The notes under the pieces were generated by a model. The model worked only from the letters and a program-made list of their open reading frames with translations. It searched no databases and had not been told where the DNA came from. The position numbers and the translations under genes were made by a program. From contig JBBARF010000002.1 of NCBI GenBank assembly GCA_040399925.1, positions 3,213-67,212 on the forward strand: 64,000 nucleotides of DNA, read 5' to 3'. Origin of the DNA: Bacteriovoracaceae bacterium. Lineage in GTDB: Bacteria; Bdellovibrionota; Bacteriovoracia; Bacteriovoracales; Bacteriovoracaceae. Positions 142-42,846 of this stretch are shown here, piece by piece (position 1 is the stretch's first letter; each line of letters starts with the position of its first letter).

Positions 142-3100
142 ATGAAGCATCACTTCCTGATTTATTTTTTCCTTCTGATTCTAGGTGCATGTAATACACC
201 AGGGACATCGGTTAAGGTGACATCTGGAGGAATCACGACGGATGCTCTTTACGCTCTTGATGGAAACAATGTAGATGGCAAGTTAGTTGACTTAGGTGAA
301 TATCTTTTGACAAGTGATCCGCGCGTGCTCACTATCAGCGTTTATAATAGTACTGCGAAAAGTTATACGGAACTTGATCTTAAAATCACTACCGAAGCCG
401 ATAAAGCTCCCTCGATTACTTTTGCTCCTACTAGTGATGGTGCCATTAATTACCCTGGTCAGGGTGGAACTTGTGGGAAAGAGCTGGGTGCAAATTCTGG
501 TTGCCTCATCAAGCTTTTGCTCACCCCAAGAGAAGGTCGCCGTTACCTCGAGACATTAACACTTAGTTTTAAAAACTTTATTGAAGTCGAAACTCATACT
601 GCCCAAGTTAAGTTTATTGCAGGGACTGCAGCATCGCTAGTTTTTACCAATGATAAAACTCAATACACTTTTGGGGCGCTTGTAGGAAGTGCCCAGACAC
701 CTGTTGTTGAGCGAGCGGAGAAACCAACTTTTAATGAAGAACTAGAGATCGTGAATGCTGGTGGATTACCAGCAAAAGATATTGTCGTCACTCTCGCAGA
801 AGTCTGTCTCTCAGCGATAAGTAATGACTGCCCAACAGGAATGATAGGGGCCTATTCATTTGAAAATAACTGCCCCGCTGTTCTTGAACCAGGCGACAAG
901 TGTAAAGTCATGATTCGTTACACGCCAAAAAACCAGGATATCGCAGGTGATCCTCTTAGATCGGAAATAGCAGAGATTAATTACCGCGCAACTTTAAATT
1001 TAGCCTTTAAAAAAGATCCCATGAACTCAAGCGGAGGCCTTAACGGTTATTTCCGTTCTGTCTCAACAACCATTGAAGCGCGTTTTAAAGTTTCTCAAGC
1101 GACGGTGAGTTTTGAAGCTCCAGTTATTTCAGGTAACCGAGACGTCCGCACCATGAGGATCAGCAACGTTGGTTACCAAGAAGGTGAGATCAAGGCAATT
1201 GCTGTGAGGGATAGTGGGGGAGTTCTCATGGGAACTTGTAGCGCTAGAGCGGGATTTGATTATCTTGTTTGCGTTGATCCTTCAAATACTCCTCTCTCTC
1301 TGGCGAGTTTCCCTTTTACAATAAAAGATAAAGATTCCTGTGTTGCTGTTTCGCCTCTGGTTGGAAAACTTGTTCCGGTTGGGTCAGGTTGCCTTATTGA
1401 TGTCACCTTTCAGCCCTCGGTAACCTATATCCGCGACTATGATACTGATTTTTTAAACTTACAGCCTGAAGTCATTTTTGATTCTCGCTGGCAGGGCACA
1501 ACTAAAATTGTCACGACAAAACTTTTTAATCTTTCGGCAAAAGCTAGAGCTGCGGCCAGAATAAGTGTAACAAGCGTGCTCCTAGATGGAACCAAATATC
1601 CAATCACAGCGGGAGTGAACCCGACTGCAGATTTAGGTCGACTTGCTCTTCAGTCTCCTCTCTATTTTAAAAGGGCCCCATTTGTTGTTACTTTCACCAA
1701 TAATGGTAGCATCTCGGCGACTAACATTTCTCTTCGAGATGGCTTGAATCGTACAATTCCGATTGGTGGCGCCGGAGCGAATCTAGGAGCAATGGCCCCA
1801 TTTTATTTTTCTGGAGCAGTGGCCAGTGATAGCTTCTGTACCGTGATTCCCCCTGCTGGATCATGCACAATCGTTACGAATTTTGCTCCCATCGGAATGG
1901 CCACAGGTGCACAAGAAGATGCAAATATGTTTGATGGCATTGGGCTTGACCTTAGACCCTATAAATCTTTTGAGCTCCTCTATGATAGTGGAGCCGCCTA
2001 TACTGATATTAATCGTGATAACAATATTCCAGATTATCCTCGCAGCTCTGCCAATGTGAGAGTCAATACACTTCTTGCCCGAAAGGGTCTGTTGATGAGA
2101 CTCAGTGATGATACTAGAAACGTTAATTCTTTCGGCGGAACCATTAATGCCGTAGGTGGCACTTTTATATCGAATATCTTTTTAACCAACATTGGAACAG
2201 GAACGATTCCTTATATCCGTTTACAGAATCCTCCGGTACCGACCGCCCCATCATTTCATTTTAATACCAATCTCATTCCGACTACAAACCCTGCTTCTCT
2301 TGGTGCAGACTATGATTGCTTGAGTATCACTGACCAAGATTTTACCTACGCAACACCTGCTGGTGCAGATCCATCAGTAAGAGCTGGAATGTTCGCAGGT
2401 CTCCCTAAAGACAAGTCTTGCGTCTATACCATCGAAATGAAAACTGCTGATAGGTTCCGCTTCGTTAATCCTACTTCGTGTACAAGTCTACTTCCTACCG
2501 ACTCAAATGAAGAAGAGGCAACAAGGCTTTTTAGCCGTTCGCTAGATTCCTCTGGAGGTACAAGTCTTTGGGAGTTTTGTAGTAATAATGCAGTAGCGAT
2601 TCTTTGGTCAAACATTGGCGTGACTTACTATGATGGCGATAATGAAGATCTTCTCGCAAGACCTTTTGGAAGAAGATTTAACTTACCTAATTACACTCAC
2701 TCCGTTAACCAGAGAGATGTTGCAAAACTCAGTCTCCATTCCTTTTTTCCACCTCTAACCTCGACCATGTATCGACCTGGTTTTACCTACCCGGCAATAT
2801 CAGGGACTCAAGTGGCAAGAATTATTCCAGAGATGTGGTTCTATGGACTTGGAAAGAATTTTAACTATCTTGCCAATGATCCCCTGCAAGTTTCTCCCTT
2901 TGTGAGAGGTAATGGCTCGAGGAACTTTGTTCCTACTCTTTCAGGGTTTGCTGATCGGGCCAACTATGACTTTATTCTTTATGTCGGAAGTTTTCCTCAA
3001 GGGTCTCCGGCGTTTGATCTTCCCATTGGCCTGGGAAACTTTGGAGAGCATCCGGCGAAAGTTCTGAGCTACACCAACACTCCAGATCCTAGTTTCACAG

Positions 3101-5391
3101 TACTTACTTCGCCTGAAACTTTCCCCGTCACGGTTCCAAGTAATTCTAATCTTTTGCCACTAACTTACAGATTTAATCCTTCCATCGCTGGAGAGCACCG
3201 GATGGAGATTGATCTGTCCTATGAAAATGGAAGACACTTAGTTCCTCTCATTTATAAATCTAGTAATGTCCCTTCGAATCTCGCAACAGCTACAAAAGAA
3301 GTGATGGACCTAAAAATTTTGGTTCTTGCTCACGTTCAGCAAGCCGGTACCCATCCACTGCTCACGATGAATGTGAGTGACTATGATGTGATTCAAAATG
3401 AATCTGGACCACCAACAGTTACTCTCGGCGATGCTTATCCCTCTTCACTTACATGGAATAGCAGTCCTCCCACCTCAAATCTTATTTTCGATACGATTAA
3501 ATTAACCGCTGCACCAACAGTAAATGATGCTTATGCTAAAAAGAAAATCGTCTTCAGCAATAATACCGCATTTCCACTTTTAGATCTGAGGAATATTTTT
3601 AGAGTCGATGCCTCGGCTTCGGCTTCTAGAACTGTTCCTTCAAGCTTTACATCCTCACTGGCGCAAGTTCCAATGGGTGAGACGCCTTGTACATCAGGAA
3701 TGACCCTAAATCCTTTTTCAAGTTGTACTCTCATTCTTATTTATCAGCCAACGGCTGCTGATTCGACGGAATCGTTTGTGTTGACCTCCATTTATAATAT
3801 GGGATCTATTGGAGGCCAGTACGTCATGCAAAATGTGGGTGTAAACCTACTACCTCGATCACCGGGCTTTGTCGTCGCCTCTGGACGAACGCTGGAGACT
3901 ATCAACTACAATGTTTCCCAAGGAAGTACAACCGTCCCTCGCTCATCATATGCGATGAATTTTGGTACTGTGAGTATGTCGACAATGCCTTTGAAATTTA
4001 ATTTTCAAGAACCAACTGGCCTCTATCAGAGATTAATTTTACGAAATACCCAAGCGACTAAGGCGTCGCTGCTGCTTGCCTATCAGAAAAATGTCACAAG
4101 ATATTCTTTGCGAGGGTATTCTCCAGGATCACCAGCTCCCACCAGTTTGATTCCATCTGCTGGAGAATATCGGAACTACGGAGGCCTTGACTACGCTGTC
4201 ATTTACTCCACCAAGTATGGCAATGGTGATAAAAAAGTCACGATGGAAGCCTCAAAGGGCTGTTTTTTTGGTGATGACGAAACGAATAATGCGATACCTG
4301 CCCATCAAAAGGGATTCAGTTCTACAACTATTACACCTTGCAATGTGCTTACATACTTCAGTGCTAATTTTGACTTCCTTCATAGAACCCTCTCCATTTC
4401 GAACGGCAACGACATGAGGGAGACTGCGGCTGAGCTCTGGTACTTCTCTGTGAACCGAAGTTCTACTTCTTCATTATGGGTCCATATGAAAGGGGTTATT
4501 ACTCCTGATCCATCAATTGCGAGTGGATCAGTAGGATCAGTTGCGGCTTTAGATAACCGAACTGTAAACTTTAGTACGCAAAAAATGACACCTACCAATT
4601 CAGATCTAGGTGATATCGTCGGATTAAGAATCATGTTTTCAAATTCAGCTGTAGGTCTTAATAACCCGTATAGCACAGCCATTACGAGCTATGTTGATAT
4701 TAGGCCTTATGTCGCAACATCCACTCAGTTTGCAAATATTACGACCGGTCTAGCTAATGGTCAGTATTTTTATTTTAGGATTGTTGCAATCCGAAGGGAT
4801 ACTCGATTTGTTGATGGAACACCTAAGCGGTTCCTAGGTATGAATCTTAATGAATATCTTTCAGCGGCAAATAATAATGCAACTCCAGTTAGCATTCTGG
4901 TACCACCAATCAACTTCCATTATTTCCACACCCAGAAGCTCCTTGTAGAAAAGAGTCTCACAGGCGGGATTGCTTACGACCCATTCATGACTTCCTCAAA
5001 CAGGTGCTCGCTACGAACGCAGCTCACACTTAAGAATCCTGGAAATATCAACCGCCCTTTTCAGTTGATTAACTCAGCTGCTTGGTCTCTACTGCTCAGC
5101 ACTCCAAGTGCTAATTCTTATGCAAACATGACCCAGATTCCCCATTGGATGGGAGATGCGGCTACTAACATTGATCTCTTATTTGGGAGTATGCCAGGTT
5201 TCATTCCAGGTACCTCATCCCAAATACTCCCTGGTAGCTCGGCTTTCTATATTAGAGACAGTGCTATTCCCAATGCTAATGTACGTATAGCACGTGGTGG
5301 AGTTCCAGGAACGACCTACGCTAACTATACTTCGCTCATTCATAGTACTATCATATATGGTTCTGCACGTTGCATGGTTTTATTACCTTAG
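142..5391 (+). CDS. Giant surface lipoprotein/adhesin with tandem ASH/choice-of-anchor-D-like Ig domains, an FN3-like domain and a C-terminal Cys-containing tip domain
   Basis: ATG142 (AGGA upstream) gives MKHHFLIYFFLLILGA-C, a lipobox. Repeats of a [LF]xNxG ... CxnCxIxxx[FY]xP motif occur about 7-8 times; TGLANGQYFYFRIVA is FN3-like. The track's GTG100 start overlaps the upstream gene and is unlikely. Confidence 0.75.
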   Translation: MKHHFLIYFFLLILGACNTPGTSVKVTSGGITTDALYALDGNNVDGKLVDLGEYLLTSDPRVLTISVYNSTAKSYTELDLKITTEADKAPSITFAPTSDGAINYPGQGGTCGKELGANSGCLIKLLLTPREGRRYLETLTLSFKNFIEVETHTAQVKFIAGTAASLVFTNDKTQYTFGALVGSAQTPVVERAEKPTFNEELEIVNAGGLPAKDIVVTLAEVCLSAISNDCPTGMIGAYSFENNCPAVLEPGDKCKVMIRYTPKNQDIAGDPLRSEIAEINYRATLNLAFKKDPMNSSGGLNGYFRSVSTTIEARFKVSQATVSFEAPVISGNRDVRTMRISNVGYQEGEIKAIAVRDSGGVLMGTCSARAGFDYLVCVDPSNTPLSLASFPFTIKDKDSCVAVSPLVGKLVPVGSGCLIDVTFQPSVTYIRDYDTDFLNLQPEVIFDSRWQGTTKIVTTKLFNLSAKARAAARISVTSVLLDGTKYPITAGVNPTADLGRLALQSPLYFKRAPFVVTFTNNGSISATNISLRDGLNRTIPIGGAGANLGAMAPFYFSGAVASDSFCTVIPPAGSCTIVTNFAPIGMATGAQEDANMFDGIGLDLRPYKSFELLYDSGAAYTDINRDNNIPDYPRSSANVRVNTLLARKGLLMRLSDDTRNVNSFGGTINAVGGTFISNIFLTNIGTGTIPYIRLQNPPVPTAPSFHFNTNLIPTTNPASLGADYDCLSITDQDFTYATPAGADPSVRAGMFAGLPKDKSCVYTIEMKTADRFRFVNPTSCTSLLPTDSNEEEATRLFSRSLDSSGGTSLWEFCSNNAVAILWSNIGVTYYDGDNEDLLARPFGRRFNLPNYTHSVNQRDVAKLSLHSFFPPLTSTMYRPGFTYPAISGTQVARIIPEMWFYGLGKNFNYLANDPLQVSPFVRGNGSRNFVPTLSGFADRANYDFILYVGSFPQGSPAFDLPIGLGNFGEHPAKVLSYTNTPDPSFTVLTSPETFPVTVPSNSNLLPLTYRFNPSIAGEHRMEIDLSYENGRHLVPLIYKSSNVPSNLATATKEVMDLKILVLAHVQQAGTHPLLTMNVSDYDVIQNESGPPTVTLGDAYPSSLTWNSSPPTSNLIFDTIKLTAAPTVNDAYAKKKIVFSNNTAFPLLDLRNIFRVDASASASRTVPSSFTSSLAQVPMGETPCTSGMTLNPFSSCTLILIYQPTAADSTESFVLTSIYNMGSIGGQYVMQNVGVNLLPRSPGFVVASGRTLETINYNVSQGSTTVPRSSYAMNFGTVSMSTMPLKFNFQEPTGLYQRLILRNTQATKASLLLAYQKNVTRYSLRGYSPGSPAPTSLIPSAGEYRNYGGLDYAVIYSTKYGNGDKKVTMEASKGCFFGDDETNNAIPAHQKGFSSTTITPCNVLTYFSANFDFLHRTLSISNGNDMRETAAELWYFSVNRSSTSSLWVHMKGVITPDPSIASGSVGSVAALDNRTVNFSTQKMTPTNSDLGDIVGLRIMFSNSAVGLNNPYSTAITSYVDIRPYVATSTQFANITTGLANGQYFYFRIVAIRRDTRFVDGTPKRFLGMNLNEYLSAANNNATPVSILVPPINFHYFHTQKLLVEKSLTGGIAYDPFMTSSNRCSLRTQLTLKNPGNINRPFQLINSAAWSLLLSTPSANSYANMTQIPHWMGDAATNIDLLFGSMPGFIPGTSSQILPGSSAFYIRDSAIPNANVRIARGGVPGTTYANYTSLIHSTIIYGSARCMVLLP

Positions 5392-5440: not shown

Positions 5441-6781
5441 ATGTGTAAGCTAGGTTTCAAATTCTCAATTCTCTTATTTTTATTCCTGAATCTTCAGGCC
5501 CATGCCAATGATTCACGGTTAATTTTAGTTAGGAAAATTCAAGGTCTTGAGCAATTATCCGATGCTCTCGGCAGGCAGATGCAAACTTTAACTTTAAAAG
5601 TTGCTTCGCAACAGCCGGGTCACCAGATACTTCTTTCTGGAAGTGATACTCCTGAGTCAACTACTGTGGACATGGTTGCGATGGAAGCAGAAGTAGGTCG
5701 CTCAGAGAATGGATATAAAATTGAAACTCGTCTTCTTGATCTCAGATCCAAAAAGCTTTTAACTAAAGCGTCCTTAGAAAACATTCGAGAAGAAAACCTC
5801 CTCCGCATGTTCCAAGGGGCCCTAGAGTCTTTATTTATTCTAGATGAAAAAAATCCCTCAAAAGTCCCTAAAGTAAAAACTCCTCAGCCGGTAATCAAGA
5901 AAGAGAATCTAAGATCAAAACCGTCGACGACGCAGGTAAATCAAGCCGATCCCCCAACGCTAAAATTTAGAGAACGAGTTTTGCAAATGAAAGCTGATGC
6001 CGATGAGAGTATTCAAAAGATCGTAAATGATAAGCAGAACGCAGCACCGAGCGCCGAAAAGCTCTCTGCTCCTTCAACTCAATCAAGCTCTATGGCCTCT
6101 CCGAACCAAGTTTCGGTCGCAGAGGATCCGGTCAAAAAAGCAGTCATCGAGAAAACGTATGCAAAAAGTTATGGATTAGCTGGGGGTTATGATTCTAGAG
6201 AAATTAAAAGTCAGTATCTCGTTGGAACAACAACCAAAGCTCAGCTGTTAACCTTAAAGGCATCAGCTTTTTTTCCGATGGCGTTCTCAAGCGGGAAGGT
6301 TGGTGGAGATTTTGATATGGCCTATAGCCGGGCGATCTCATCTCCTGTGGTGTTGCCATCAATTTATCAAATAGGAGCTTTTCTCACTTGGAAAGAAGAG
6401 CGCTGGACTCTTTCAACGGGGCTTCAGCAAGATTCATCTTTTTTTGTTAACCTCCCCTCAGCGGGAGAAGGACTTAAGCCACAAACCATTACGGGAACAT
6501 GGCTAAAATTAAAATCATCGTTTCGGTTTTATGCCAAAGGTTATTGGAAAGTGAATTTGGGTTACGGATCACCATTGTTAGCTCAGACGAACTATTCTCC
6601 TCTCAAAAAGGTAACTAAGTGGTCGGGACTTAACGCTGTTCTTTCTGTCGTTCCACCCTGGTCCTATCGTCAATGGCAAGCAAACTTTACGATTGAAAAA
6701 ATTAATCTCAATACATCGGGAGAAACGTCATTTACCTTAAACGAATCACGAACTGGCTTATTTGCTACTCGGCAGCTTTAA
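5441..6781 (+). CDS. Exported protein: N-terminal TolB-N/CsgG-like alpha/beta domain, Pro/Lys/Ser-rich linker, C-terminal outer-membrane beta-barrel
   Basis: Signal peptide ending AHA; motif YKIETRLLDLRSKKLL typical of CsgG/FlgO/TolB-N folds; low-complexity linker; amphipathic aromatic beta-strands in the last 200 aa. Confidence 0.55.
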   Translation: MCKLGFKFSILLFLFLNLQAHANDSRLILVRKIQGLEQLSDALGRQMQTLTLKVASQQPGHQILLSGSDTPESTTVDMVAMEAEVGRSENGYKIETRLLDLRSKKLLTKASLENIREENLLRMFQGALESLFILDEKNPSKVPKVKTPQPVIKKENLRSKPSTTQVNQADPPTLKFRERVLQMKADADESIQKIVNDKQNAAPSAEKLSAPSTQSSSMASPNQVSVAEDPVKKAVIEKTYAKSYGLAGGYDSREIKSQYLVGTTTKAQLLTLKASAFFPMAFSSGKVGGDFDMAYSRAISSPVVLPSIYQIGAFLTWKEERWTLSTGLQQDSSFFVNLPSAGEGLKPQTITGTWLKLKSSFRFYAKGYWKVNLGYGSPLLAQTNYSPLKKVTKWSGLNAVLSVVPPWSYRQWQANFTIEKINLNTSGETSFTLNESRTGLFATRQL

Positions 6782-6810: not shown

Positions 6811-7368
6811 ATGATTCAGTCAGGACTCAAAAAGTCTGATGAGTTTTCTCTCATGATGGGAATGGCGAATATAAGTTTCACAGAGTCTCAGAGTGCTTTA
6901 AGTGGGCCTAATCAGCAAACTCCTGCCTCAGGATCTGTAGCAAGCATCAGTGGGATGCTCCACTATCGATTCAGAACGGATGGAAATAAGGCCTGGTATG
7001 GCCAGTTTACCTTTCCTCTCATAGCAAGCCAGGGAACCTACTTTTCGAGTGGTGGTGGGCTGGAGTATTACTTTGGCAATTCAAATGCTGCCAAGGTAAT
7101 CCTCCAAGATGCTACGACATCTCTTAGTATTACTCCAGTAACTCGCTATTTTCTTTTATCTGGACTTAACATGGCCTACATTTCTTACCTAACTGATACG
7201 GCAAAGAAAAACGATACCCTTTTAGAAATTGATTTAGGTGGGGGAGTAAGTCGTCGTTTTGAGAAGTGGACTTTAAGGGCCCAGGCAGAAATTGCCCGGG
7301 GGATTGGGATATCGACCACAACTTTAGCAATGAAGGCCATGGTAGGTGGCATTTATTTCCTCGATTAA
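6811..7368 (+). CDS. Small outer-membrane beta-barrel protein (true start probably upstream, near 6730)
   Basis: Alternating hydrophobic beta-strands, Gly/aromatic rich, ends GGIYFLD. The frame is open back to 6706 and encodes a signal-peptide-like stretch there. Confidence 0.6.
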   Translation: MIQSGLKKSDEFSLMMGMANISFTESQSALSGPNQQTPASGSVASISGMLHYRFRTDGNKAWYGQFTFPLIASQGTYFSSGGGLEYYFGNSNAAKVILQDATTSLSITPVTRYFLLSGLNMAYISYLTDTAKKNDTLLEIDLGGGVSRRFEKWTLRAQAEIARGIGISTTTLAMKAMVGGIYFLD

Positions 7369-7420: not shown

Positions 7421-8026
7421 ATGAAACGGCTTTTATTCATTACTTTTATTCTGTCAATCATCTTGAGCGATGTATCAATGGCAGCTAAATTAAACATTAA
7501 AAGTCAGCCAGATGCCGCTGAGATTTTTATTAGCACAAACGGTAAACCTATACGTCTGGGTGTGACTCCTTACGAAGCGAACCTAACTGAGGTTATGAAC
7601 GTATACGTTAAATCAAATAGCTTCGTACTTGAAATTAGAAAATCTGGTCATACTCCTTACCGAGTACTTTTAGCTAAAACGACGGACTCCGATCTGGAAC
7701 TCACGGCCAACCTTGAATTAGACAAGGCCATATCAAATATCAAAGAGCATGATTCACTGATGAACCAACTTTTTGATGTTCAAAAACTTGTGAGAGGTCG
7801 CAACTTCCGTGATGCACTTTCGAAGTTAGATGATCTTGAGAAAAAACATCCAACTCTCTCTATTATTCCTGAAATGAAGGCCACGGCCTACTACATGAAT
7901 AAAGAAGTTGAGAGTGCTCTTAGTTATTACCGTAAAGCCTTTTCATTAAATTCAGACAATCATGATGCCTATAGGATGAAACTTTATCTCGAGAAAAAAC
8001 TCGGGGTAGATTCAGACGTTCAATGA
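7421..8026 (+). CDS. Periplasmic PEGA-domain + TPR protein
   Basis: GGAG at 7411 then ATG7421; signal peptide MKRLLFITFILSIILSDVSMA; PEGA motif KSQPDAAEIFI...GVTP; TPR helices AYYMNKEVESALSYYRKAFSLN. Confidence 0.75.
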   Translation: MKRLLFITFILSIILSDVSMAAKLNIKSQPDAAEIFISTNGKPIRLGVTPYEANLTEVMNVYVKSNSFVLEIRKSGHTPYRVLLAKTTDSDLELTANLELDKAISNIKEHDSLMNQLFDVQKLVRGRNFRDALSKLDDLEKKHPTLSIIPEMKATAYYMNKEVESALSYYRKAFSLNSDNHDAYRMKLYLEKKLGVDSDVQ

Positions 8027-9942
8027 TGAAATTTTCCATTGCATTTCTAGTTTGTTTAATCAGCGGTAATGTCTTTTCTTTAGCCGGAAATTCTTTGACT
8101 TGGCAAAAACTTGCTTTGGAAGAAAAAGTCCAGTCTAAGTATAATTCAACTATTTCAGCGCTCCTAAAAGATAACCAGTATATGGTTGATGTTGAAGTTG
8201 AAGTCTCTGAACCAGCTGCTCCTAATTTCGGAAATAATGGACATAAAGGTGGACCACGCGTTTCAGATCTTTCAATGGCCGAAGCTAGAGGCGATTACAT
8301 CGCATTCTCTAAAATGGGGCTTGAAGTTCCAGTGGTCGAAAAATTTCTTGATGAAGACCGCACAAAGCTGATGAACCTTTATCGTTTTAACGAAACCTAT
8401 GATGTCTTTAAGAGCATTAACTCACTTAATATTACTGTTTATCTTAGTGATAAGATTACTTCAGACCTCGCAGAGATTGTTAAAAAAGTTGTTGGAAATA
8501 CCAGAATCTCTGTCTCTGGAATTAAGCCAAAAATTAAATTCGAAAGTATCACGATGGAATGGGTCGATCCTGCTCTGAAAAAAATCGCTGATGATAAAAA
8601 ACTAGAGAAAAAACCTGAAGAGCAAGAACCAAAAATTTGGGCAAAGGATTGGTACGAATGGGCTTCTCGCTGGGGAAATGCAGTTGGTCTCATTCTTGGA
8701 GCTCTCATTATCAGCCTCATCGCTCTGTCACTTTTTAAGCAATGGAAAGCTTTTATGGAGAAATTTGCAGCTCAGGCCAATCAACCAAAGCCTGAGGAGA
8801 AGAAAGAAGAAGATGAGAAAGAAGAGGAACTTGCTACTGCACAAGCAACGAATATACCTAAAGAGGAAGAAGAGATGGCAGCTTCACACGATTTCGAAAG
8901 ATTCCAGCAGTGTCTTGAACAGCATTCAGATGAAGCTGTTAACATGGTGAGAAATTGGTTGAACGAGGACGAGGAAGCGTCTCTCTTGGCGCTACGTGGA
9001 GTAGCTCAACAGGTGAATGCTGCAGATATGGAAAAACTAATGGCGGGTTTGTCATCTGAGCAACGTGATAAGTGGAAAAATCTGATCCATCATCTTGAAC
9101 CCAAAGACTTAGTTACTGCTAACAAGCACATCTTTCAAGAAGTGATTCGTTATTTCTTAGTTCCAACAAAGATCAAAGATGGTGAGCTCCTAAATCTCAT
9201 CATGGAACTTAACTCCAAAGCAACCTTTGAATTCATCAATGCTAATAAAATCCATACTGGTGCGATGATGAACTTATTAAATCCAGTCATCGTTGGAAAG
9301 ATTCTAGCTGAAGTTGATGACGACACTGCTGACAACTGGCTAGCGTTAGGCGCTCAGTTTGACATTAAGAGAATGGATGAAGTGCTTCCGACTCTCAAAG
9401 AGGCCCTCCGTGCCCACAAAGAGGCCAATGGTCCGGCTCCGTTTGCTCAACGAATCATGACAATGATCCCGACATCATCTCCGAAAAGAGAAGGAGTTCT
9501 TTTTAGAGCTCTGGCCAAAGCTGGCAATGCTGGAATGGTGACAGAAGTCGCCAAACGCCACTTTCCGAGTGAGCTTATCTTAGAACTTCCGGTTCCTTTT
9601 CTAAAAGAAGTTCTACAGTCTTATCCGATTTCAAAAAGGGTAGAGTTTTTACAAAGTCGTCCGGAAGATGTCCGAGCAAATTTGATTGATATACTTGCTG
9701 AAACTGGTACACCGGCACGGGACATGCTCGACATGGAACTTGAAAATATTTCCCATGACGCTTCTAAGCTCCAATCCATATCTGATCGTAGTGAAGATAT
9801 TTGGTACGACTTTGTTAAGCTTTCGAGAATGAGTCTAAGTAAAAATTCTTCTTATGCCACGATCTTAAATCAGCTCATTCAAGAATGGAGCTCTCAGCTT
9901 CAAGGTAAGCTTCAGTCGATTAAGGGTGGAAAAGCCGCATAG
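8023..9942 (+). CDS. Putative natural FliF-FliG fusion: signal peptide, FliF RBM3/SpoIIIAG-like ring motif, TM helix, FliF C-tail, FliG N/M/C domains
   Basis: Segments match the FliF/FliG consensus patterns in the correct order: LEEKVQSKY..LL...VDVEVEV; INSLNITVYL..IVKKVVG; TM AVGLILGALIISLIALSLF; HSDEAVNMVRNWLNE; FPSELILELPVPFLKEVLQSY; ARDMLDMELENI. Confidence 0.75.
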   Translation: MMKFSIAFLVCLISGNVFSLAGNSLTWQKLALEEKVQSKYNSTISALLKDNQYMVDVEVEVSEPAAPNFGNNGHKGGPRVSDLSMAEARGDYIAFSKMGLEVPVVEKFLDEDRTKLMNLYRFNETYDVFKSINSLNITVYLSDKITSDLAEIVKKVVGNTRISVSGIKPKIKFESITMEWVDPALKKIADDKKLEKKPEEQEPKIWAKDWYEWASRWGNAVGLILGALIISLIALSLFKQWKAFMEKFAAQANQPKPEEKKEEDEKEEELATAQATNIPKEEEEMAASHDFERFQQCLEQHSDEAVNMVRNWLNEDEEASLLALRGVAQQVNAADMEKLMAGLSSEQRDKWKNLIHHLEPKDLVTANKHIFQEVIRYFLVPTKIKDGELLNLIMELNSKATFEFINANKIHTGAMMNLLNPVIVGKILAEVDDDTADNWLALGAQFDIKRMDEVLPTLKEALRAHKEANGPAPFAQRIMTMIPTSSPKREGVLFRALAKAGNAGMVTEVAKRHFPSELILELPVPFLKEVLQSYPISKRVEFLQSRPEDVRANLIDILAETGTPARDMLDMELENISHDASKLQSISDRSEDIWYDFVKLSRMSLSKNSSYATILNQLIQEWSSQLQGKLQSIKGGKAA

Positions 9943-9967: not shown

Positions 9968-10025
9968 ACCTCATAGGCTATTCTAGAATGGTAATTGCTA
10001 CAGCTCACCAATGACAGGAGGTCTT

Positions 10026-10526
10026 GTGAGAGGTCCAGATTCAAATGCTATTGAAAATACTCAAAAAACACCTGACAAAGAAAAAAGTGCTCAAACGGTT
10101 TATGACTGGAAAGTCGTTCTTGATAAAGGTCTAGGTGATGATAAGAATGTCATCTACCAAGAAAAAGCATGGGCCCAATTATGTTCTAAGATGCGTGAGG
10201 CGTGCCCTGAAACAAATTGGTATGCGATCTCGGAGCGGGTCGAAAAATGCACACCTGACAGAGCAGTGACGATTGATGCGATAGGAAAATGGCTTAATAA
10301 TCTCCTTGCCTCATCTGAATGGCCTTTTCCCGAAAAAATTATTCTGGTTTCTGTTCAAAGACCAACACCGAGTTGGAAAATTATCTTTGAAGGTAATTAC
10401 AAAAAGCTCCCTTTTACGAATCCTCCCTTAAGTTTATCAGTCATCCCTTTTCGGGATAAATTCTCTTCTGGCTGGACTATCCACGAAATAGATTCATATA
10501 ACATTAGCAAAGTTGGCGAAGCATGA
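10026..10526 (+). CDS. Hypothetical cytoplasmic protein
   Basis: AGGAGG at 10016-10021 favours GTG10026 over ATG10011; 4-bp overlap with the next gene; no family recognised. Confidence 0.65.
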   Translation: MRGPDSNAIENTQKTPDKEKSAQTVYDWKVVLDKGLGDDKNVIYQEKAWAQLCSKMREACPETNWYAISERVEKCTPDRAVTIDAIGKWLNNLLASSEWPFPEKIILVSVQRPTPSWKIIFEGNYKKLPFTNPPLSLSVIPFRDKFSSGWTIHEIDSYNISKVGEA

Positions 10527-11743
10527 AATCTTGTTTTATTTTGATTTTGTGTCTATTTTTTATACCTTTATCCCATGGCTCGAATCCATCTTTGACTAAC
10601 CTGCTTAAAACCATCGATGGAAAAATTAAGCATGATGAAAAGATTAAAAAAACAGCAGCCAATGAAACTAAATCAGTTTCAATCCCCTGGGGAATTGTAG
10701 ATCGGCGCGAGAGAAATCTTTGGACCTCTATAGTTTACGCTTACGATCACTTGAAAAATTTTTCTGCCACTGAAAGATATAATTTTATGTATGAGGCGAT
10801 GCGTGCCACTTCTTTTGGTCACCCAAAAAGAGTCTATGCTCTTAAAGCATGGATTAAAAAAGAAGATGCTCGTATGGTAAGCAGAGGCATGCCAGCGAAT
10901 TTCTATCTAAATTGGACTAAGCATGTTTTCTCCATTAATAAAGCCATTGATGAAGTCGGTGCTCCTCGTCCAACTGTTAATATACAAAAAACAGAATTAG
11001 GAATGGGCCCTGAAACGATAAGCTTCATTAAAAACCTTCGCGCTCAAATTGATCAGATCAAACCTGAAGCCTCTAAAGAAAAGTTTTCAATAGGTGAAAA
11101 AGTCGCTGAAAAGAAATCAAGCGCTTCTTTACCGATAAATGTTTTAATGTCGACGGTACTTCTTTCAATCTTGGGTTTTTACTTTGGAAGAAAAAGCAAG
11201 CCTGCGAAAGTGATCATTAAAACGATCAAGGTTCCGGTTCCTAAAGAAAAGACTGAGGTGACACCTGTTATTGAGGCCCAAGCGGCGCAGGTAAGTTTAG
11301 AGCAAGAATTTCACAAGTTATTAACTGAAAACTATCATCTGTTAGAAGTTGCGCAGATTAATGTCAACTTGGGGAATCGCAGTCCTTTCAATAGTGATGT
11401 GAATGCACCTCGAGAGTCTGTGTATGAGGCCCTTAAATGGCTTTTAAAAGGGACTATCGCTATCGCTAATACAAGTGGTTCAAGAGTGTCTCATATGGAA
11501 TGGAACTGTAAAGAAAGCCAAGGCAGAGTAACATTTCAATTCACTCTTCACGGAATTGAGTGTGATAATGATTCCCTCTATATGAATGCCCTGATAGATG
11601 GTGAAAACTCAGCTCCGGCCCACTTTGGAAGAAGTGAGCAGGCATTATCTGGGCATCTACCTTTGATTCAGTTCACATCAGGCAACCGTAAGACGAGTGT
11701 TTCTTTAGGACTGGATTCAATTAGATCTTCAATGAATCAATAA
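10523..11743 (+). CDS. Membrane protein: signal peptide, periplasmic domain, one TM helix, degenerate HATPase_c (GHKL)-like cytoplasmic domain
   Basis: N-terminal signal; TM INVLMSTVLLSILGFYFG; C-terminal helix-strand order (YEALKWLLKGTI...VTFQFTLHGIE...TSVSLGL) mimics HATPase_c, but N-box, G-boxes and H-box are missing. Confidence 0.55.
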   Translation: MKSCFILILCLFFIPLSHGSNPSLTNLLKTIDGKIKHDEKIKKTAANETKSVSIPWGIVDRRERNLWTSIVYAYDHLKNFSATERYNFMYEAMRATSFGHPKRVYALKAWIKKEDARMVSRGMPANFYLNWTKHVFSINKAIDEVGAPRPTVNIQKTELGMGPETISFIKNLRAQIDQIKPEASKEKFSIGEKVAEKKSSASLPINVLMSTVLLSILGFYFGRKSKPAKVIIKTIKVPVPKEKTEVTPVIEAQAAQVSLEQEFHKLLTENYHLLEVAQINVNLGNRSPFNSDVNAPRESVYEALKWLLKGTIAIANTSGSRVSHMEWNCKESQGRVTFQFTLHGIECDNDSLYMNALIDGENSAPAHFGRSEQALSGHLPLIQFTSGNRKTSVSLGLDSIRSSMNQ

Positions 11744-11783: not shown

Positions 11784-12182
11784 TTATTGATCTTGTTTGA
11801 AAATATAGGCATCAGCTGAATTGTCTGCTCCTTCACCATCTTGGAACAAAGCACCCGCTCTTATCTTACCGTTGTGTTTGGCGATAGGTTCTAAGACTCT
11901 AATCACGGCACGTCGGTTAAGCTTCGCAATTTCTCTAGGTGACACTCCATTTTTTGCTTCCATCTTATATTCGGCCACTGGTTCTCGATCTCCCTTGGCC
12001 AAAGCAACGAGGTATTCAGTCTTAAATCCGAAGTATTCAAACCTTGCAATGACTTGAGCCGCTCTGGCAGCACTCAAGGACCAGTGGTTCATATTACCAG
12101 CAATTAAGGATTCATTCTTATCTGCGTGGCCTTCAATGAGAATTCGATACTCAGTGTGATGGGCCTTAATCATCTCAATCAG
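11784..12182 (-). pseudogene. motB: 5'-truncated MotB (OmpA-like peptidoglycan-binding domain only)
   Basis: ILIEGHAD...NHWSLSAARAAQV...LVALAKGDREPV...NRRAVI is the MotB/OmpA C-terminal signature. There is no TM or plug region, and the frame is closed by TGA at 12216-12218 inside the neighbouring GT gene. Confidence 0.8.
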
Positions 12183-13054
12183 CCCATGGCCTCGAGAACT
12201 ACTCGACCGAATTCTTCAATGCGGGCCGGGAGGACGAAGAGGTCGATAGCATTATAGAAATTTTGAATGTCATCAAGGGATGGCTGAAACTTTACCACGG
12301 AGTCGAGATTTTTAGTTGTGATGAGATCACGGAAAGGTCCGGGCTCATCTTTACCGATAATTCGCACATCAATTTTTTGAAGGGTTTCGGGTTTGAGTTT
12401 GGCCAGAGCTTCAACAAAAATATCAAGCCCACGTTTTTTAAAATTTCCCGACGTGATGAGACTCACCACGATTTTATCGGTGAAACCAAAACGCTTGCGC
12501 TGAAATTGTTTTTCCTGTTTTGAGAGGGGAAAAAACATTTTGGTATCAAGGGCCGGATAGATGACCTGAATTTTTTCTGCCGGTACTCCAAAACGTTTGA
12601 TGGTGTCGTTTTTCATTAGCTTGGAATTTGCGATCATGTAACGGAAGCTTTGATTCTTGAGCAGTGGTCCGTGAGTCAGGGCCATCTCGTGATCAGCCGG
12701 TAGAGCTTTGTTATTGATGAGTTCAGAGGCGTAGAACACACAGTTATGGAGAGTCACCACGTCCTGATCTTGGATGTCTCCGTGACCGACGGTGATAGTG
12801 GGACTCAGTTTTTGGCGAAGGTTTTGCACTTGCCAGTTATACCAACGGCGGCGAGTGATGCCGGTGCTTTTGAGCCATGGGAGCATTTTATGAGGGATGA
12901 CTGAGATCGATTTTAAGGCATCTTTGTCCATGGTCATAGCGGCGACATGAACGACGTAACCCTTAGATTGAAAATAACGAATATTTTCAAACGCGGTTCG
13001 GGCGGAACCGGAGTTCTTGTGGAGTTGGAGCATGCAGATGAGGGCGGTTTTCAT
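12179..13054 (-). pseudogene. GT4 (WaaG/RfaG-like) glycosyltransferase, 3'-truncated
   Basis: GT-B motifs KRGLDIF and FVLPARIEEFGRVVLEAMG. The ORF stops immediately after the E-x7-E motif, where intact GT4 enzymes continue (G.PV...) for tens of residues. Confidence 0.8.
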
Positions 13055-13733: not shown

Positions 13734-14069
13734 ATGAATCCAAATCTGCCAATACACCGTCAACGCTTGACCACTGATCGACGAGGTTGAATTTGTAAAA
13801 TTGAAGTTAGTATTGAGCAGACTGCTGACTCGAATATCTATCAACCAGATGGTCAAAAATGTGTTTTTAAAGTTTTGAGAGAAAAGTTAAAAGGCGAAGA
13901 AGAATTTGAAATTGTTCTCTTAATTGATAGTCACAGTCCTTTTGGATTTCATAATCACTCAAAGCTACCGCTGAATCATGAAGTTCGAGAAACCATCCAT
14001 GCATCAAATTGGATCGAAGCGTGGCATATATTCGATAAGAAAGTTAGGGAGCTATTGGATGAAGCTTAA
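13734..14069 (+). pseudogene. DUF6516/TumE-like toxin candidate interrupted by an in-frame TGA at 13788-13790
   Basis: ATG13734 is in frame with the track ORF 13875-14069; a single TGA separates MNPNLPIHRQRLTTDRRG from ICKIEVSI...IDSHSPFGFHNH. It sits upstream of an HVO_A0114-type gene, the usual pairing. Confidence 0.6.
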
Positions 14070-14499
14070 AATTTTAAATGTCATTTTTTCTAGTCATGAT
14101 GAATTCATGGGAGAATTAAAAGAAGCTTTATTCAATGGTAAAAACTCAAATGAAGCGAATCAAACTCTTTCGTTTGATAGTTTTGAAACATTCAAAAGGT
14201 TGATGACGGCCAATAAACTTGAAATTTTAATGGCGATAGCGAGAATAAAGCCGACCTCAATAAATCAACTATCAAAAATTTTGAATCGTGAATATCCTCA
14301 TGTCTTAAAGGACTGTAACTCACTTCTCAATTTGGGATTCATTAAATTAGAAATAGTTGAGAGTGCAAGAAAACAGTTTGTGCCAAAACTTGCTTTTGAC
14401 TACGACATCATTGTTGTGAAATCCCGCATAGAAGAAATATTTTCCATTTCTGAAAAATCTAACAAGGTACTCTTAATGGCGAGAGTGAATAATTTATGA
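14059..14499 (+). CDS. HVO_A0114-family (MarR-like wHTH) DNA-binding protein, putative antitoxin
   Basis: TLSFDSFETFKRLMTANKLEILMAI..IKPTSINQLSKILNREYPHVLKDCNSLLNLGFI; GGGAG at 14047 supports ATG14059. Confidence 0.75.
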   Translation: MKLKILNVIFSSHDEFMGELKEALFNGKNSNEANQTLSFDSFETFKRLMTANKLEILMAIARIKPTSINQLSKILNREYPHVLKDCNSLLNLGFIKLEIVESARKQFVPKLAFDYDIIVVKSRIEEIFSISEKSNKVLLMARVNNL

Positions 14500-15101
14500 A
14501 AAAGAAATTAGAAGTCATAAAGACTAAGCCAAATGATAAAAAAATGATCTATCGCTTGAGAATTAGTCTTGATGAAACTGAACCCGAGGTCTGGAGACGC
14601 CTTCTTGTTCCGGGAAAGCTTAGCTTGGAGAAGCTGCATCTTATTTTTCAAATAGTCATGGGATGGGAGAATTCGCATCTCCATGAATTTAAGATTCACT
14701 CTAAAAGATATATTAATCCGCTGAATGATCCAGATGCTATTTACTCCTTCCCGCCATCTTTTGATGAAAGGAAAGTCAAAATCGCTGATGTTTTAAGTAA
14801 AAAAGATCGATTCACTTACGATTACGACTTTGGAGATAATTGGTCTCATTCAGTAGTCGTTGAGGATGTTCTAAGTCCAAATGAGATTTTTACCTATCCT
14901 GTTTGCCTCGACGGTGCGAATGCCTGTCCCCCCGAAGATAGTGGAGGCATTCATGGGTACTATGCCCTATTGGAAGATCTGGCACAGGAAGATTCAAAAG
15001 AGCATGAGAATGCGATGGCATGGGTCGGTGGGCAGTTTAATCCAAGTTCTTTTGATGCAAACCGAATCAATAGAGATGTCCTTTGGCTGTTGAAATGGTG
15101 A
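14496..15101 (+). CDS. Plasmid pRiA4b ORF-3 family protein
   Basis: Signature motifs VWRRLLVP..LSLEKLH, MGWENSHLHEF, YDYDFGDNW, GANACPPEDSGG. Confidence 0.9.
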   Translation: MKKKLEVIKTKPNDKKMIYRLRISLDETEPEVWRRLLVPGKLSLEKLHLIFQIVMGWENSHLHEFKIHSKRYINPLNDPDAIYSFPPSFDERKVKIADVLSKKDRFTYDYDFGDNWSHSVVVEDVLSPNEIFTYPVCLDGANACPPEDSGGIHGYYALLEDLAQEDSKEHENAMAWVGGQFNPSSFDANRINRDVLWLLKW

Positions 15102-17419: not shown

Positions 17420-17761
17420 GTGGCGACATCAAGAAGAAAACCAGAAAAAAAGAGCGATCTAAGTTTGTTTGAATTGGTAGAAAGGAGAGTTGAAAATGTT
17501 GACTACATTTTTCTACCACACGCAAAAGCAAGATTGTCGGAGAGAGATATTTTAGAACCGGCCGTTCTGGATATCCTCGAAGGTAGGCATGGAAGGAAAC
17601 GGAAAAGAAATAAGAGAAAAGATGCTTACAAAGATGGCAATAAGGATTGGAATTATTGTATTGAAGGAGTCTCTCCTGATAATGAGAAAATTCGAATAAT
17701 ATTAAGCTTTGACGAAAAGATGATGCTTATCATAACTGTGATGTGGGTAGGGAAGGAATAA
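17420..17761 (+). CDS. DUF4258-family toxin-like protein
   Basis: YIFLPHAKARLSERDI....VLDIL...WNYCIEG....KIRIILSF...MLIITVM; located directly upstream of an HTH gene. Confidence 0.75.
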   Translation: MATSRRKPEKKSDLSLFELVERRVENVDYIFLPHAKARLSERDILEPAVLDILEGRHGRKRKRNKRKDAYKDGNKDWNYCIEGVSPDNEKIRIILSFDEKMMLIITVMWVGKE

Positions 17762-17762
17762 A

Positions 17763-18212
17763 ATGGAAACGAAAATTCAACAGAAGTATATTTATGAAGG
17801 TTTAGGTTTTCCTGTCGAACTTCATAACGTCATTATGGTAAAAGTAGGGAAAGAATGGGCACCAAAGATTGATGTAAGAAAAATTGCCAAGGATGCCTTA
17901 AAAGAAATTCCGACTCAACAAACCCGATTAACCGGCGCGCAAATTAGATTTGTTAGAGAGTCTTTTGGAATGTCTCTCCGAGTGTTCGCTACAAAAGTGG
18001 TCCATCAGTCCCACATGGCGGTCAGCAAATGGGAAAAATTTGACGATGAACCAACGAATATGGATGCAGCTACCGAGGTTGTGCTCAGACTATATGTCTT
18101 CCATGAGGTAACAGCAAAAAAACCAAAACAAGAAATGAAGTTTTTTCAGGCCTACGAAATAATAAGTTCCATGGTTTTTAAGGATTCTAAGTTAGTTGCT
18201 TTGAGCCTTTAA
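17763..18212 (+). CDS. MqsA/YgiT-like XRE HTH antitoxin (no Zn finger)
   Basis: LTGAQIRFVRESFGMSLRVFA...SHMAVSKWE HTH; 1-bp gap after the toxin. Confidence 0.8.
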   Translation: METKIQQKYIYEGLGFPVELHNVIMVKVGKEWAPKIDVRKIAKDALKEIPTQQTRLTGAQIRFVRESFGMSLRVFATKVVHQSHMAVSKWEKFDDEPTNMDAATEVVLRLYVFHEVTAKKPKQEMKFFQAYEIISSMVFKDSKLVALSL

Positions 18213-42261: not shown

Positions 42262-42846
42262 ATGACACTTCTCTATACGAAACATGAAACGGCTATTGTC
42301 GACGAAGGTGCACAGATTGGTGCAGGTTCTCGAGTCTGGCATTGGGTTCATATTTCTGGGAAAGCAAAAATTGGTGAGAAGTGCTCATTTGGACAAAATG
42401 TTTTTGTTGGAAACAACGTTGTTATCGGTAACAACTGCAAAATCCAAAACAATGTTTCAATCTACGATAATGTTTTCCTTGAAGATGATGTTTTTTGTGG
42501 ACCAAGTATGGTTTTCACGAATGTTTATAATCCTCGTTCAGCTATCGTTCGTAAGGACGAGTATAGAAATACTTACGTTAAGAAAGGTGTGACGATTGGA
42601 GCTAATGCAACAATCGTGTGTGGTGTTACTCTGGGGGAATTTTCATTCATTGCTGCGGGTGCAGTGATAAACAAAGACGTTAAGCCATTCGCACTCATGG
42701 CCGGTGTTCCGGCTAAGCAAATTGGTTGGATGAGTAAATATGGAGAACAAATTAAACTTCCTCTTGAAGGGAAGGGCGAGTTTGTTTGCACCAATACAAA
42801 AGAAAAGTATGTATTGAATGGATCAAAGCTCGAGGTATATAGCTAA
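42262..42846 (+). CDS. wbpD: UDP-GlcNAc3NA N-acetyltransferase (WbpD/WlbB)
   Basis: [32 protein letters not shown]. Confidence 0.92.

Follow-up and report, generated by a model that had tools for sequence, protein, structure and literature searches.

The genome of a Bacteriovoracaceae bacterium (assembly GCA_040399925.1) appears to encode a natural fusion of two flagellar rotor proteins, FliF and FliG. The gene lies in a 64,000-nt stretch of contig JBBARF010000002.1, referred to here as the window, and coordinates are window positions unless another locus is named. As called on the window, the open reading frame (ORF) occupies 8023..9942 on the plus strand, starts with ATG, and encodes 639 aa. 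Profile and structure comparisons support a polypeptide made of a domain resembling the third ring-building motif (RBM3) of FliF, one transmembrane (TM) helix, the FliF C-terminal tail, and a complete FliG with its N, M, and C domains. The relationship is seen in homology, domain order, residue conservation, and gene linkage, the last of these to flagellar-type stator genes. By analogy with the flagellar motor, we think it on balance probable that copies of the protein make up a stator-driven rotor ring that does not switch, within an envelope machine that is not a flagellum. The features of the gene are as follows.

8023..9942, plus strand: FliF(RBM3-TM-tail)-FliG(N-M-C) fusion gene, from the ORF, the family profile, the PDB profile search, and Foldseek.
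8023..8085, plus strand: signal-peptide-like N-terminus, residues 1-21, ending S-L-A before G, from reading of the sequence.
8092..8550, plus strand: ring-building motif resembling FliF RBM3 (alpha1-beta1, insertion, beta2-alpha2-beta3), from AlphaFold2 (AF2) models, profile, and Foldseek.
8206..8415, plus strand: insertion of ~70 aa between beta1 and beta2, at the position of the FliF beta-collar, from AF2 and alignment.
8680..8736, plus strand: single TM helix, the putative equivalent of FliF TM2, from an AF2 helix at 207-252 and a profile alignment to E. coli FliF 458-551.
8890..8967, plus strand: FliF C-terminal tail (the FliG-binding segment in canonical FliF), joined covalently to FliG-N, from profile alignment.
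8974..9177, plus strand: FliG-N-like helical domain, from full-length FliG Foldseek alignments and a weak match to E. coli FliG 13-43.
9184..9573, plus strand: FliG-M-like domain, helix MC, and ARM-C, ending in the hinge [F/L/Y]-P-[S/A]-x-L, from profile alignments.
9574..9906, plus strand: FliG-C-like helical bundle, with its AF2 helices in the order of FliG-C.
9706-9756, plus strand: candidate torque helix, residues 562-578, from AF2 helix order and conserved charges.

In homologs the N-terminal hydrophobic segment ends in A-x-A-like motifs and, judging from the sequence, it is probably removed by signal-peptide cleavage. The AF2 models place the RBM-like elements at residues 24-45 (alpha1), 53-61 (beta1), 132-142 (beta2), 147-159 (alpha2), and 170-176 (beta3), with residues 62-131 as the insertion; the periplasmic part, ~150 residues, is modeled as one RBM. 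The only internal TM helix (hydrophobic core, residues 220-238) is followed by a K/E-rich linker at about residues 253-289 and by the tail motif SDEAVNMVRNWLNE (residues 302-315, nt 8926-8967), which the alignment pairs with the outermost C-terminal residues of E. coli FliF, ...VVALVIRQWINND. Residues 318-628 are all helical in the model. Mean predicted local confidence (pLDDT) is 76 for the full-length model, with 80-94 in its helical C-terminal half, and 83 for a model of the N-terminal domain by itself, in which the RBM core exceeds 90. The insertion has low pLDDT in both monomer models. Pfam and NCBIfam gave no match to RBM1/RBM2 (YscJ_FliF) in the fusion protein, and no second TM helix flanks the periplasmic region, where the signal-peptide-like segment stands in the place of FliF TM1. 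An initial annotation of the window had listed a signal peptide, a ring motif with an insertion of ~70 aa, a TM helix, an acidic linker, the FliF tail, and FliG-like N, M, and C segments; sequence and AF2 models put each of these where it had been reported. The architecture proposed there, a FliF-FliG fusion lacking RBM1/RBM2 and a second TM helix, is likewise borne out by profile, structure, and collinearity.

The protein is one of a sizable family. A word-indexed search returned 89 full-length homologs, all labeled "hypothetical" or unnamed except for one "DUF305 family" entry; hosts, where stated (few), are Bacteriovoracaceae. That single label, on homolog P0045, is unique among the members, has no Pfam support, and looks like a misannotation. 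Repeating the search with a diverse alignment recovered the same 88 proteins and no new taxa. An exhaustive profile search found 442 cluster representatives at E<=1e-3, 257 of them at E<=1e-30, and most of those listed are 600-800 aa long. With this many representatives and strongly conserved motifs, the idea that the gene is a pseudogene or relic was rejected.

Family profiles were used to look for distant relatives of known structure. One was built from 51 close members and another from 133 diverse members, the latter searched against 177,635 PDB sequences; profile positions track the residue numbers of the fusion protein closely. The 51-member profile gave one PDB match, the FliG-MC fragment of T. 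maritima (E=0.001). The 133-member profile gave 10 matches below E=10, and every one with E<1 was FliG or FliF: T. maritima FliG-MC (3ajc, 1.1e-8, the best match), an engineered Vibrio FliF-FliG fusion (8z4d, 1.5e-6), Salmonella FliG (8umx, 1.2e-5), Vibrio FliF (8z5s, 0.01), and Salmonella FliF (6scn, 0.011). The engineered fusion aligned in four stretches. Profile positions 32-76 correspond to the start of RBM3, 178-313 to TM2, the linker, and the C-terminal tail, 407-464 to FliG-N, and 393-571 to FliG-MC. In the profile, the last two of these overlap, probably because FliG carries an internal armadillo repeat, and so the FliG-N-like domain proper (318-385) is not placed by this match. That region has a weak, in-register sequence alignment with E. 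coli FliG 13-43. The FliG-M region aligned with FliG from T. maritima, Salmonella, Vibrio, and E. coli. Profile positions 220-313 aligned with E. coli FliF 458-551, where that protein ends, and also with Salmonella FliF 466-559 and Vibrio FliF 447-579, and positions 388-554 aligned with E. coli FliG 108-277. From the E. coli alignments, the FliF tail and FliG-N seem to be joined head to tail at the junction. MgtE_N, a member of the FliG clan, scored weakly in 18 of the 51 close members.

Structural comparison points the same way. When the full AF2 model was searched against the PDB with Foldseek, ranks 1-12 were all FliG, with E reaching 3e-4 and a probability of 1.0 at the top of the list. 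The alignment to Salmonella FliG (8umx_B, a chain of 328 residues) has 326 columns, and full-length Aquifex FliG (3hjl) is matched as well; FliF S-ring/RBM3 entries follow at E about 0.7-2. The TM-scores of the FliG matches are low (0.2-0.37), as expected when domains are oriented differently. FliG armadillo domains, whose absence from such searches the initial annotation had set beforehand as a refutation, were thus returned by the PDB profile search and by Foldseek alike.

The N-terminal domain was probed on its own. Profile positions 32-76 aligned with the start of RBM3 in both Vibrio and E. coli FliF. The top Foldseek match of the domain-only model was FliF (9a67_A, E 8e-3, probability 0.90), and many FliF RBM3/S-ring entries, PrgK, and EscJ followed at E 0.1-0.4. 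We read the domain as RBM3-like because it has the RBM topology, carries an insertion at the site of the FliF collar, and matches FliF collinearly at the RBM3 start. The insertion varies in length among homologs. It contains the conserved motif GDYIAFSKxGLEVP, in which K97, G99, and P103 are each kept by 90% or more of the sequences of a 36-sequence N-terminal alignment. SpoIIIAG was not among the top 50 Foldseek matches of the domain-only model. A SpoIIIAG-like sporulation ring was rejected, given the lack of a match and a host that is a diderm predator.

Residue conservation was counted across the 133 diverse family sequences. The FliF-tail motif is well kept: G290 is found in 100/133, R293 in 113/133, F294 in 119/133, A305 in 106/133, K/R310 in 129/133, and W312 in 128/133. 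The positions aligned with EHPQ (407-410) are variable, with E in 39/133, N in 48, P in 52, and E in 46, and the profile consensus shows no conservation at the R160 equivalent of EHPQR. In place of the MFXF hinge stands [F/L/Y]514-P515-[S/A]516-x-L518, with an invariant P515 (133/133). The fourth helix after the hinge carries G562 (118/133), K/R564 (93/133), R/K566 (107/133), D/E567 (128/133), D/E570 (89/133), and E/D572 (131/133). In E. coli FliG, R281 and D288/D289 face MotA E98 and R90, respectively (PMC12505986). A conserved charged helix, a variable FliM surface, and a replaced hinge together suggest that the family keeps what stator contact needs and no longer carries the hallmarks of either the FliM interface or the switch hinge.

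We then compared related loci gene by gene, using ~24 non-redundant loci for stators and 28 loci for the gene directly upstream. Genes for motA/motB lie within 10 kb of the fusion gene in about 15 of the 24. In the clade with at least 44% identity to the window protein, the order is the fusion gene, two genes termed p171 and p406, and then convergent motB and motA. Four distant loci (L022, L028, L029, and L030; ~20-26% identity) have motA and motB within 0-2 genes of the fusion gene in three further arrangements, giving at least four kinds in all. Independent arrangements in such distant members argue for functional coupling and not for inherited synteny. The cluster MotA proteins align over their full length with PomA/MotP NCBIfam models (6e-37 to 5e-42, below the equivalog cut-offs) and retain PAFGMMGT and the P222 equivalent. 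The cluster MotB proteins have MotB_plug and OmpA domains and retain the channel Asp, in SYADLMSLL. The linked PomA/MotB-type stator genes are the strongest functional clue to the family, the partnership being indicated by gene linkage. The initial annotation had missed the conserved gene context, these stator genes included. The MotB linked to the fusion gene in L030 (13528-15012) is 494 aa long, about double the usual length.

Several results weigh against reading the protein as a rotor subunit. Single-sequence Pfam and NCBIfam scans of the fusion protein gave noise only; FliG_C scored in 1 of the 51 close members (0.013), and single sequences did not reach Pfam gathering thresholds. Aligned by hhalign to single E. 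coli FliG or FliF sequences, the 51-sequence alignment gave nothing significant, with one short segment placed at the RBM3 start. The RBM3 assignment is the least secure element and would be marginal if taken alone: the N-terminal sub-profile reaches FliF among PDB sequences at E about 1 only, no Foldseek match of the domain-only model attains 1e-3, and OsmC decoys score in the same range as FliF. At the other end of the protein, the C-terminal sub-profile, searched against the PDB and E. coli FliG, found designed armadillo repeats and MgtE and no FliG-C, and the register that pairs K564 with E. coli R281 and E572 with D289 comes from one HMMER alignment. About one-third of the loci, including a clade at ~32% identity, have no motAB within 10 kb. 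Finally, none of the cluster proteins looks like an axle able to transmit rotation through the peptidoglycan, and the folds of the partner proteins are unrecognizable.

The negative scans, the designed armadillo proteins, and the OsmC matches are also what would be expected if the protein combined a generic armadillo/TPR-like helical repeat with a common alpha/beta fold and was unrelated to FliF and FliG. We regard this as extremely improbable. Five segment correspondences occur in FliF-then-FliG order, with the FliF C-terminal motif placed immediately ahead of the FliG-N-like domain; PDB matches with E<1 are to FliG and FliF only; the full-length FliG matches in Foldseek have a probability of 1.0 at the top ranks; and flagellar-type stators are linked repeatedly, in independent arrangements. 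We conclude that the fusion protein derives from the FliF and FliG families and is a member of neither, a placement made because several defining features of FliF (RBM1/2, two TM helices, association with an export gate) and of FliG (EHPQR, MFXF, FliM/N partners) were not found.

The neighbors of the fusion gene in the window, other than the stator genes, are the following.

7421..8026, plus strand: PEGA-TPR periplasmic protein, probably starting at M26 of the ORF as called from GTG 7346 (226 aa).
6811..7368, plus strand: p185, a conserved protein without a recognized fold, present in most loci, including the distant L028-L030.
5441..6781, plus strand: p446, a secreted conserved protein with a signal peptide (...AHA before ND), conserved in the cluster and upstream in most loci.
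142..5391, plus strand: GiantB, an Ig-like repeat lipoprotein of 1,750 aa with the lipobox LILGAC and a HYDIN/VesB Ig-like Pfam match.
1-96: GiantA, an fn3 protein, 3' end (last 31 codons); the window begins within the gene.
10011..10526, plus strand: p171, Trp-rich and probably cytoplasmic, found in the clade with at least 44% identity.
10523..11743, plus strand: p406, probably a bitopic membrane protein with a conserved C-terminal domain, found in the same clade as p171.

The PEGA-TPR gene lies directly upstream of the fusion gene in 28/28 loci, mostly overlapping it; in the window its stop and the fusion-gene ATG overlap as ATGA. Its called start at 7346 is probably too early, as homologs are ~200 aa long and a Met followed by a signal peptide occurs at 7421. 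It is the best-conserved member of the cluster (59% mean column identity), with PEGA in 13 and TPR in 19 of 20 members. No Pfam, NCBIfam, or PDB match was obtained for p446, nor a Pfam, NCBIfam, or PDB sequence match for p185. Upstream of the cluster, most loci encode two giant Ig/fn3-repeat proteins, each 1,700-1,850 aa long; in GiantB, the N-terminus MKHHFLIYFFLLILGAC is a lipoprotein signal, given the internal Met start at 142 rather than the GTG at 100. With a PEGA-TPR gene adjoining in every locus and a p185 homolog in most, "one-protein", as the initial annotation described the rotor ring, is too strong. Downstream, p171 and p406 are confined to the clade with at least 44% identity to the window protein and have no PDB or Pfam match and no detectable relatives. 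p171 has invariant Trp residues and a PETxW motif. p406 comprises, in order, a signal/TM segment, a periplasmic part, a TM helix, and a conserved Cys/His-containing cytoplasmic domain. That the two are cytoplasmic partners replacing the C-ring is pure conjecture. Contigs from a lake metatranscriptome cover parts of GiantB, the fusion gene, p171, and p406, which is weak evidence that the cluster is transcribed.

Two loci show further features. In a metagenome-assembled genome whose contigs are named in long-read style (L023 10001-11803), the fusion and giant genes are split into several ORF pieces, from either indel sequencing errors or a decaying copy. In L001/L002, a 679-aa protein combining FHA with a YscD cytoplasmic domain (L001 17739-19778) and large TPR proteins are encoded a few genes from the cluster.

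Export-gate, rod, hook, L/P-ring (FlgH/I), FliM/FliN, and flagellin families were not recognized in any of the ~24 clusters or their 10-kb flanks, a negative result qualified by the several cluster proteins that have no recognizable relatives. This content fits two statements of the initial annotation, that the ring has no export gate and that it has no switch ring; the second also agrees with the non-conserved EHPQR motif. It bears as well on whether the fusion protein is part of a real flagellum, either as a divergent MS-ring/FliG that replaces the canonical pair or as an accessory or second ring of a sheathed polar motor that recruits extra stators. All of the detectable homology does point to flagellar rotor proteins, and the linked stators are of the flagellar type, with PomA/MotP-like MotA and a MotB plug. 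TPR scaffold proteins, moreover, occur in some complex flagellar motors. Bacteriovoracaceae are themselves flagellated (PMC3526173). Beyond the missing gene families, however, the fusion protein lacks RBM1/RBM2, the part of FliF that houses the export gate, and its conserved neighbors are giant Ig/fn3 proteins and proteins without a known family. Furthermore, the isolate B. marinus SJ has a full set of motility genes with only one motAB pair (PMC3526173), so a flagellum in this order can run on one stator pair. We consider a flagellar role quite unlikely.

The PEGA-TPR protein suggests another reading, in which nothing rotates. Some of its members have weak matches to HrpB1_HrpK, a periplasmic protein of type III secretion, and to TPR_Slam, the surface-lipoprotein assembly modifier; given the adjoining giant lipoprotein, the TPR_Slam resemblance may offer a lead. 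The FliG-like domain could serve as a transducer or scaffold that docks MotAB-type motors, which would pull on or energize an envelope-spanning complex in the manner of TonB-ExbBD or TolA-TolQR for the display, secretion, or tensioning of giant lipoproteins. Such a device would fit a cluster in which no axle is recognized, and the cluster has a Tol-Pal-like flavor in its TPR protein, its OmpA-like anchor, and possibly its outer-membrane proteins. An invariant proline in place of the flexible MFXF hinge would also suit a static part. The stators, however, are of the flagellar and not the ExbB/TolQ type, and the ring-building motif, the insertion at the collar position, and a complete FliG with its charged helix are kept even in very divergent members, which is as expected if rotor geometry matters. 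A non-rotating transducer is, in our judgment, unlikely, if slightly less so than a flagellar role.

Returning to the rotor ring, we propose how such a machine might be built. Ring formation, rotation, the direction of force transmission, and a biological role are all inferred. The protein would be exported by Sec and its signal peptide probably cleaved, leaving the RBM3-like domain and its collar-like insertion in the periplasm. One helix would span the inner membrane, with the FliF tail and a complete FliG (N, M, C) in the cytoplasm; the contact between the FliF tail and FliG-N that flagella make would here be covalent. As FliF and the engineered FliF-FliG fusions do, many copies would assemble into a membrane ring, here bearing a cytoplasmic FliG ring, without a switch complex or a secretion core. 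Dedicated PomA/MotB-type stators would anchor to peptidoglycan and, through ion flow, push the conserved charged helix of the FliG-C-like domain and thereby turn the ring. The rotor would probably not switch, because EHPQR is not conserved, an invariant Pro takes the place of MFXF, and no FliM/FliN is recognized in the cluster. Periplasmic output might pass to the PEGA-TPR protein, then to p185/p446, and from there to the giant Ig/fn3 proteins, at least one of them a lipoprotein, for the purpose of surface movement, adhesion, or prey handling. A fuller version of the proposal, a stand-alone ion-driven rotary machine that turns in one direction on its own PomAB-type stators with no type III core, is one that we put forward tentatively. 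Equally tentative is its mechanical side, in which the periplasmic face drives or tensions a Sec-exported assembly of PEGA-TPR, envelope, and giant proteins as a surface-motility or prey-handling apparatus in the predatory Bacteriovoracales.

Canonical FliF and FliG (Salmonella, Vibrio, and E. coli) share with the fusion protein TM2, the tail motif (...K/R-x-W-I/L), the FliG N-M-C helices, PomA/MotB-type stator gene partners, and, less securely, an RBM3-type motif with a beta1-beta2 insertion and a charged helix at the torque-helix position. Unlike them, the fusion is one polypeptide with a signal-peptide-like N-terminus for TM1 and no RBM1/RBM2; its EHPQR is not conserved, its MFXF has become an invariant Pro motif, it falls below Pfam/NCBIfam thresholds, and its neighbors are PEGA-TPR, giant Ig/fn3, and family-less proteins, with no recognizable flagellar genes nearby. 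Engineered FliF-FliG fusions (Salmonella; Vibrio 8z4d/8z4g) have the same head-to-tail order of FliF tail to FliG-N. They assemble rings, and the Salmonella ones support rotation (PMC4768692 and PMC6079021, citing Francis 1992 and Thomas 2001). They differ in that a full-length FliF (RBM1-3, two TM helices) works in a complete flagellum, whereas the protein described here is natural, truncated, and widely conserved in a gene cluster of its own.

A natural FliF-FliG fusion has a precedent in the Chlamydiaceae (Bergeron 2016; PMC4768692). The chlamydial protein is ~330 aa long, with two TM helices, RBM2 and one further RBM, no SpoIIIAG-like RBM3, and a FliG-M-like region only, and no linked stators are described (PMC4768692). 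In both cases a shortened FliF is naturally joined to FliG-like sequence in a setting without a flagellum. By its description, the chlamydial protein nevertheless differs from the 639-aa protein here, which has the opposite part of FliF (RBM3-like, TM2, and tail) and a complete FliG N-M-C. SpoIIIAG and SctJ (PrgK/EscJ) share the alpha-beta-beta-alpha-beta RBM topology, PrgK/EscJ being weak Foldseek matches, and the RBM of SpoIIIAG also carries a large insertion (PMC4768692). Neither has a cytoplasmic FliG-like domain, and the sequence signal of the fusion points to FliF. The GldLM motor of type IX secretion and gliding in Bacteroidota and AglRQS-Glt of Myxococcus and Bdellovibrio offer a possible functional analogy only. 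They couple an ion-driven 5:2-type inner-membrane motor to periplasmic proteins, outer-membrane components, and very large adhesins (PMC9389320, PMC13104615). Their motors are of the GldL/ExbB/TolQ type, with no FliG- or FliF-like rotor, and homology of the cluster proteins to Gld or Glt proteins was not detected.

To our knowledge, the FliG-MotAB rotor-stator pair has no reported setting other than the flagellum, where a type III secretion core underlies it. Beyond the chlamydial case, the literature searched yielded no non-flagellar FliG-stator system, no natural FliF-FliG fusion from Bdellovibrionota, and no description of this family. The family unites a minimal FliF(RBM3-TM-tail)-FliG polypeptide, flagellar-type stators, and wholly non-flagellar envelope and surface proteins. 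If the stand-alone reading is true, the flagellar rotor-stator module works independently of the export apparatus. A rotating ring would be a natural minimal rotor in which one gene supplies MS-ring and FliG ring alike, a good subject for structural and single-molecule studies, and would be direct evidence that the torque module is separable from the export apparatus, with a bearing on flagellar motor evolution. It would also provide a natural "no-switch" FliG (an invariant Pro for MFXF and no EHPQR) useful for dissecting switching and, possibly, give Bdellovibrio-like predators a new device for motility, adhesion, or predation. Even a static ring would be the first FliG-like stator adaptor outside the flagellum.

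The stator genes of the window itself are interrupted, as two further features indicate.

11784..12182, minus strand: motB 3' half (OmpA-like domain only, by Pfam match to OmpA), cut at the junction.
12182..12211, no strand: a 30-nt word common to two assembly paths, from contigs of metagenome runs X1, X2, and X3.

Of motB, the window retains no more than the final 129 codons (11784-12173, minus strand), and motA is absent from the whole 64 kb. In a tblastn search, L001 MotB covered residues 105-253; the genuine motB is the part below 12182, about residues 125-253. In three independent metagenome runs, contigs from the left side part from the window at 12182, and what follows on them codes, in reverse complement, for the upstream MotB residues (...PNTTSMVDT). 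Sequence to the right of the junction is found on other contigs, and the two sides overlap only at 12182-12211 (X1, X2, X3). A GT4 glycosyltransferase (12179-13054) lacks its C-terminus at the junction. The break at 12182 is very probably a chimeric assembly join, the alternative for 12182-12211 being a strain-specific rearrangement. On a 62-kb contig with a 99%-identical fusion protein, p406 is followed at once by motB (252 aa) and motA (265 aa), both intact, and these by genes for a 451-aa protein and a 645-aa fn3 protein. A degraded motB in the organism was rejected, as the truncation sits at the assembly junction and the near-identical contig has motB intact.

Right of the junction (12179-64000), the window is mostly a polysaccharide biosynthesis island of the O-antigen or capsule type, and no flagellar gene was found to the right of 12182. 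The island encodes several glycosyltransferases, three DegT-type aminotransferases, many epimerases/dehydratases, a UDP-glucose dehydrogenase, a Wzx-like flippase, an ABC ATPase, and three asparagine-synthase paralogs (42846-44759, 47661-49394, and 58884-60755). Its GC content is 0.35-0.41, compared with 0.40-0.44 left of the junction. Two small gene pairs close to the junction on this side look mobile or defense related. At 13978-15101, an HVO_A0114-family protein is followed by a pRiA4b ORF-3-like protein (PF07929, 1e-62). At 17420-18212, a DUF4258 protein is followed by a 149-aa ORF in a toxin-antitoxin-like arrangement.

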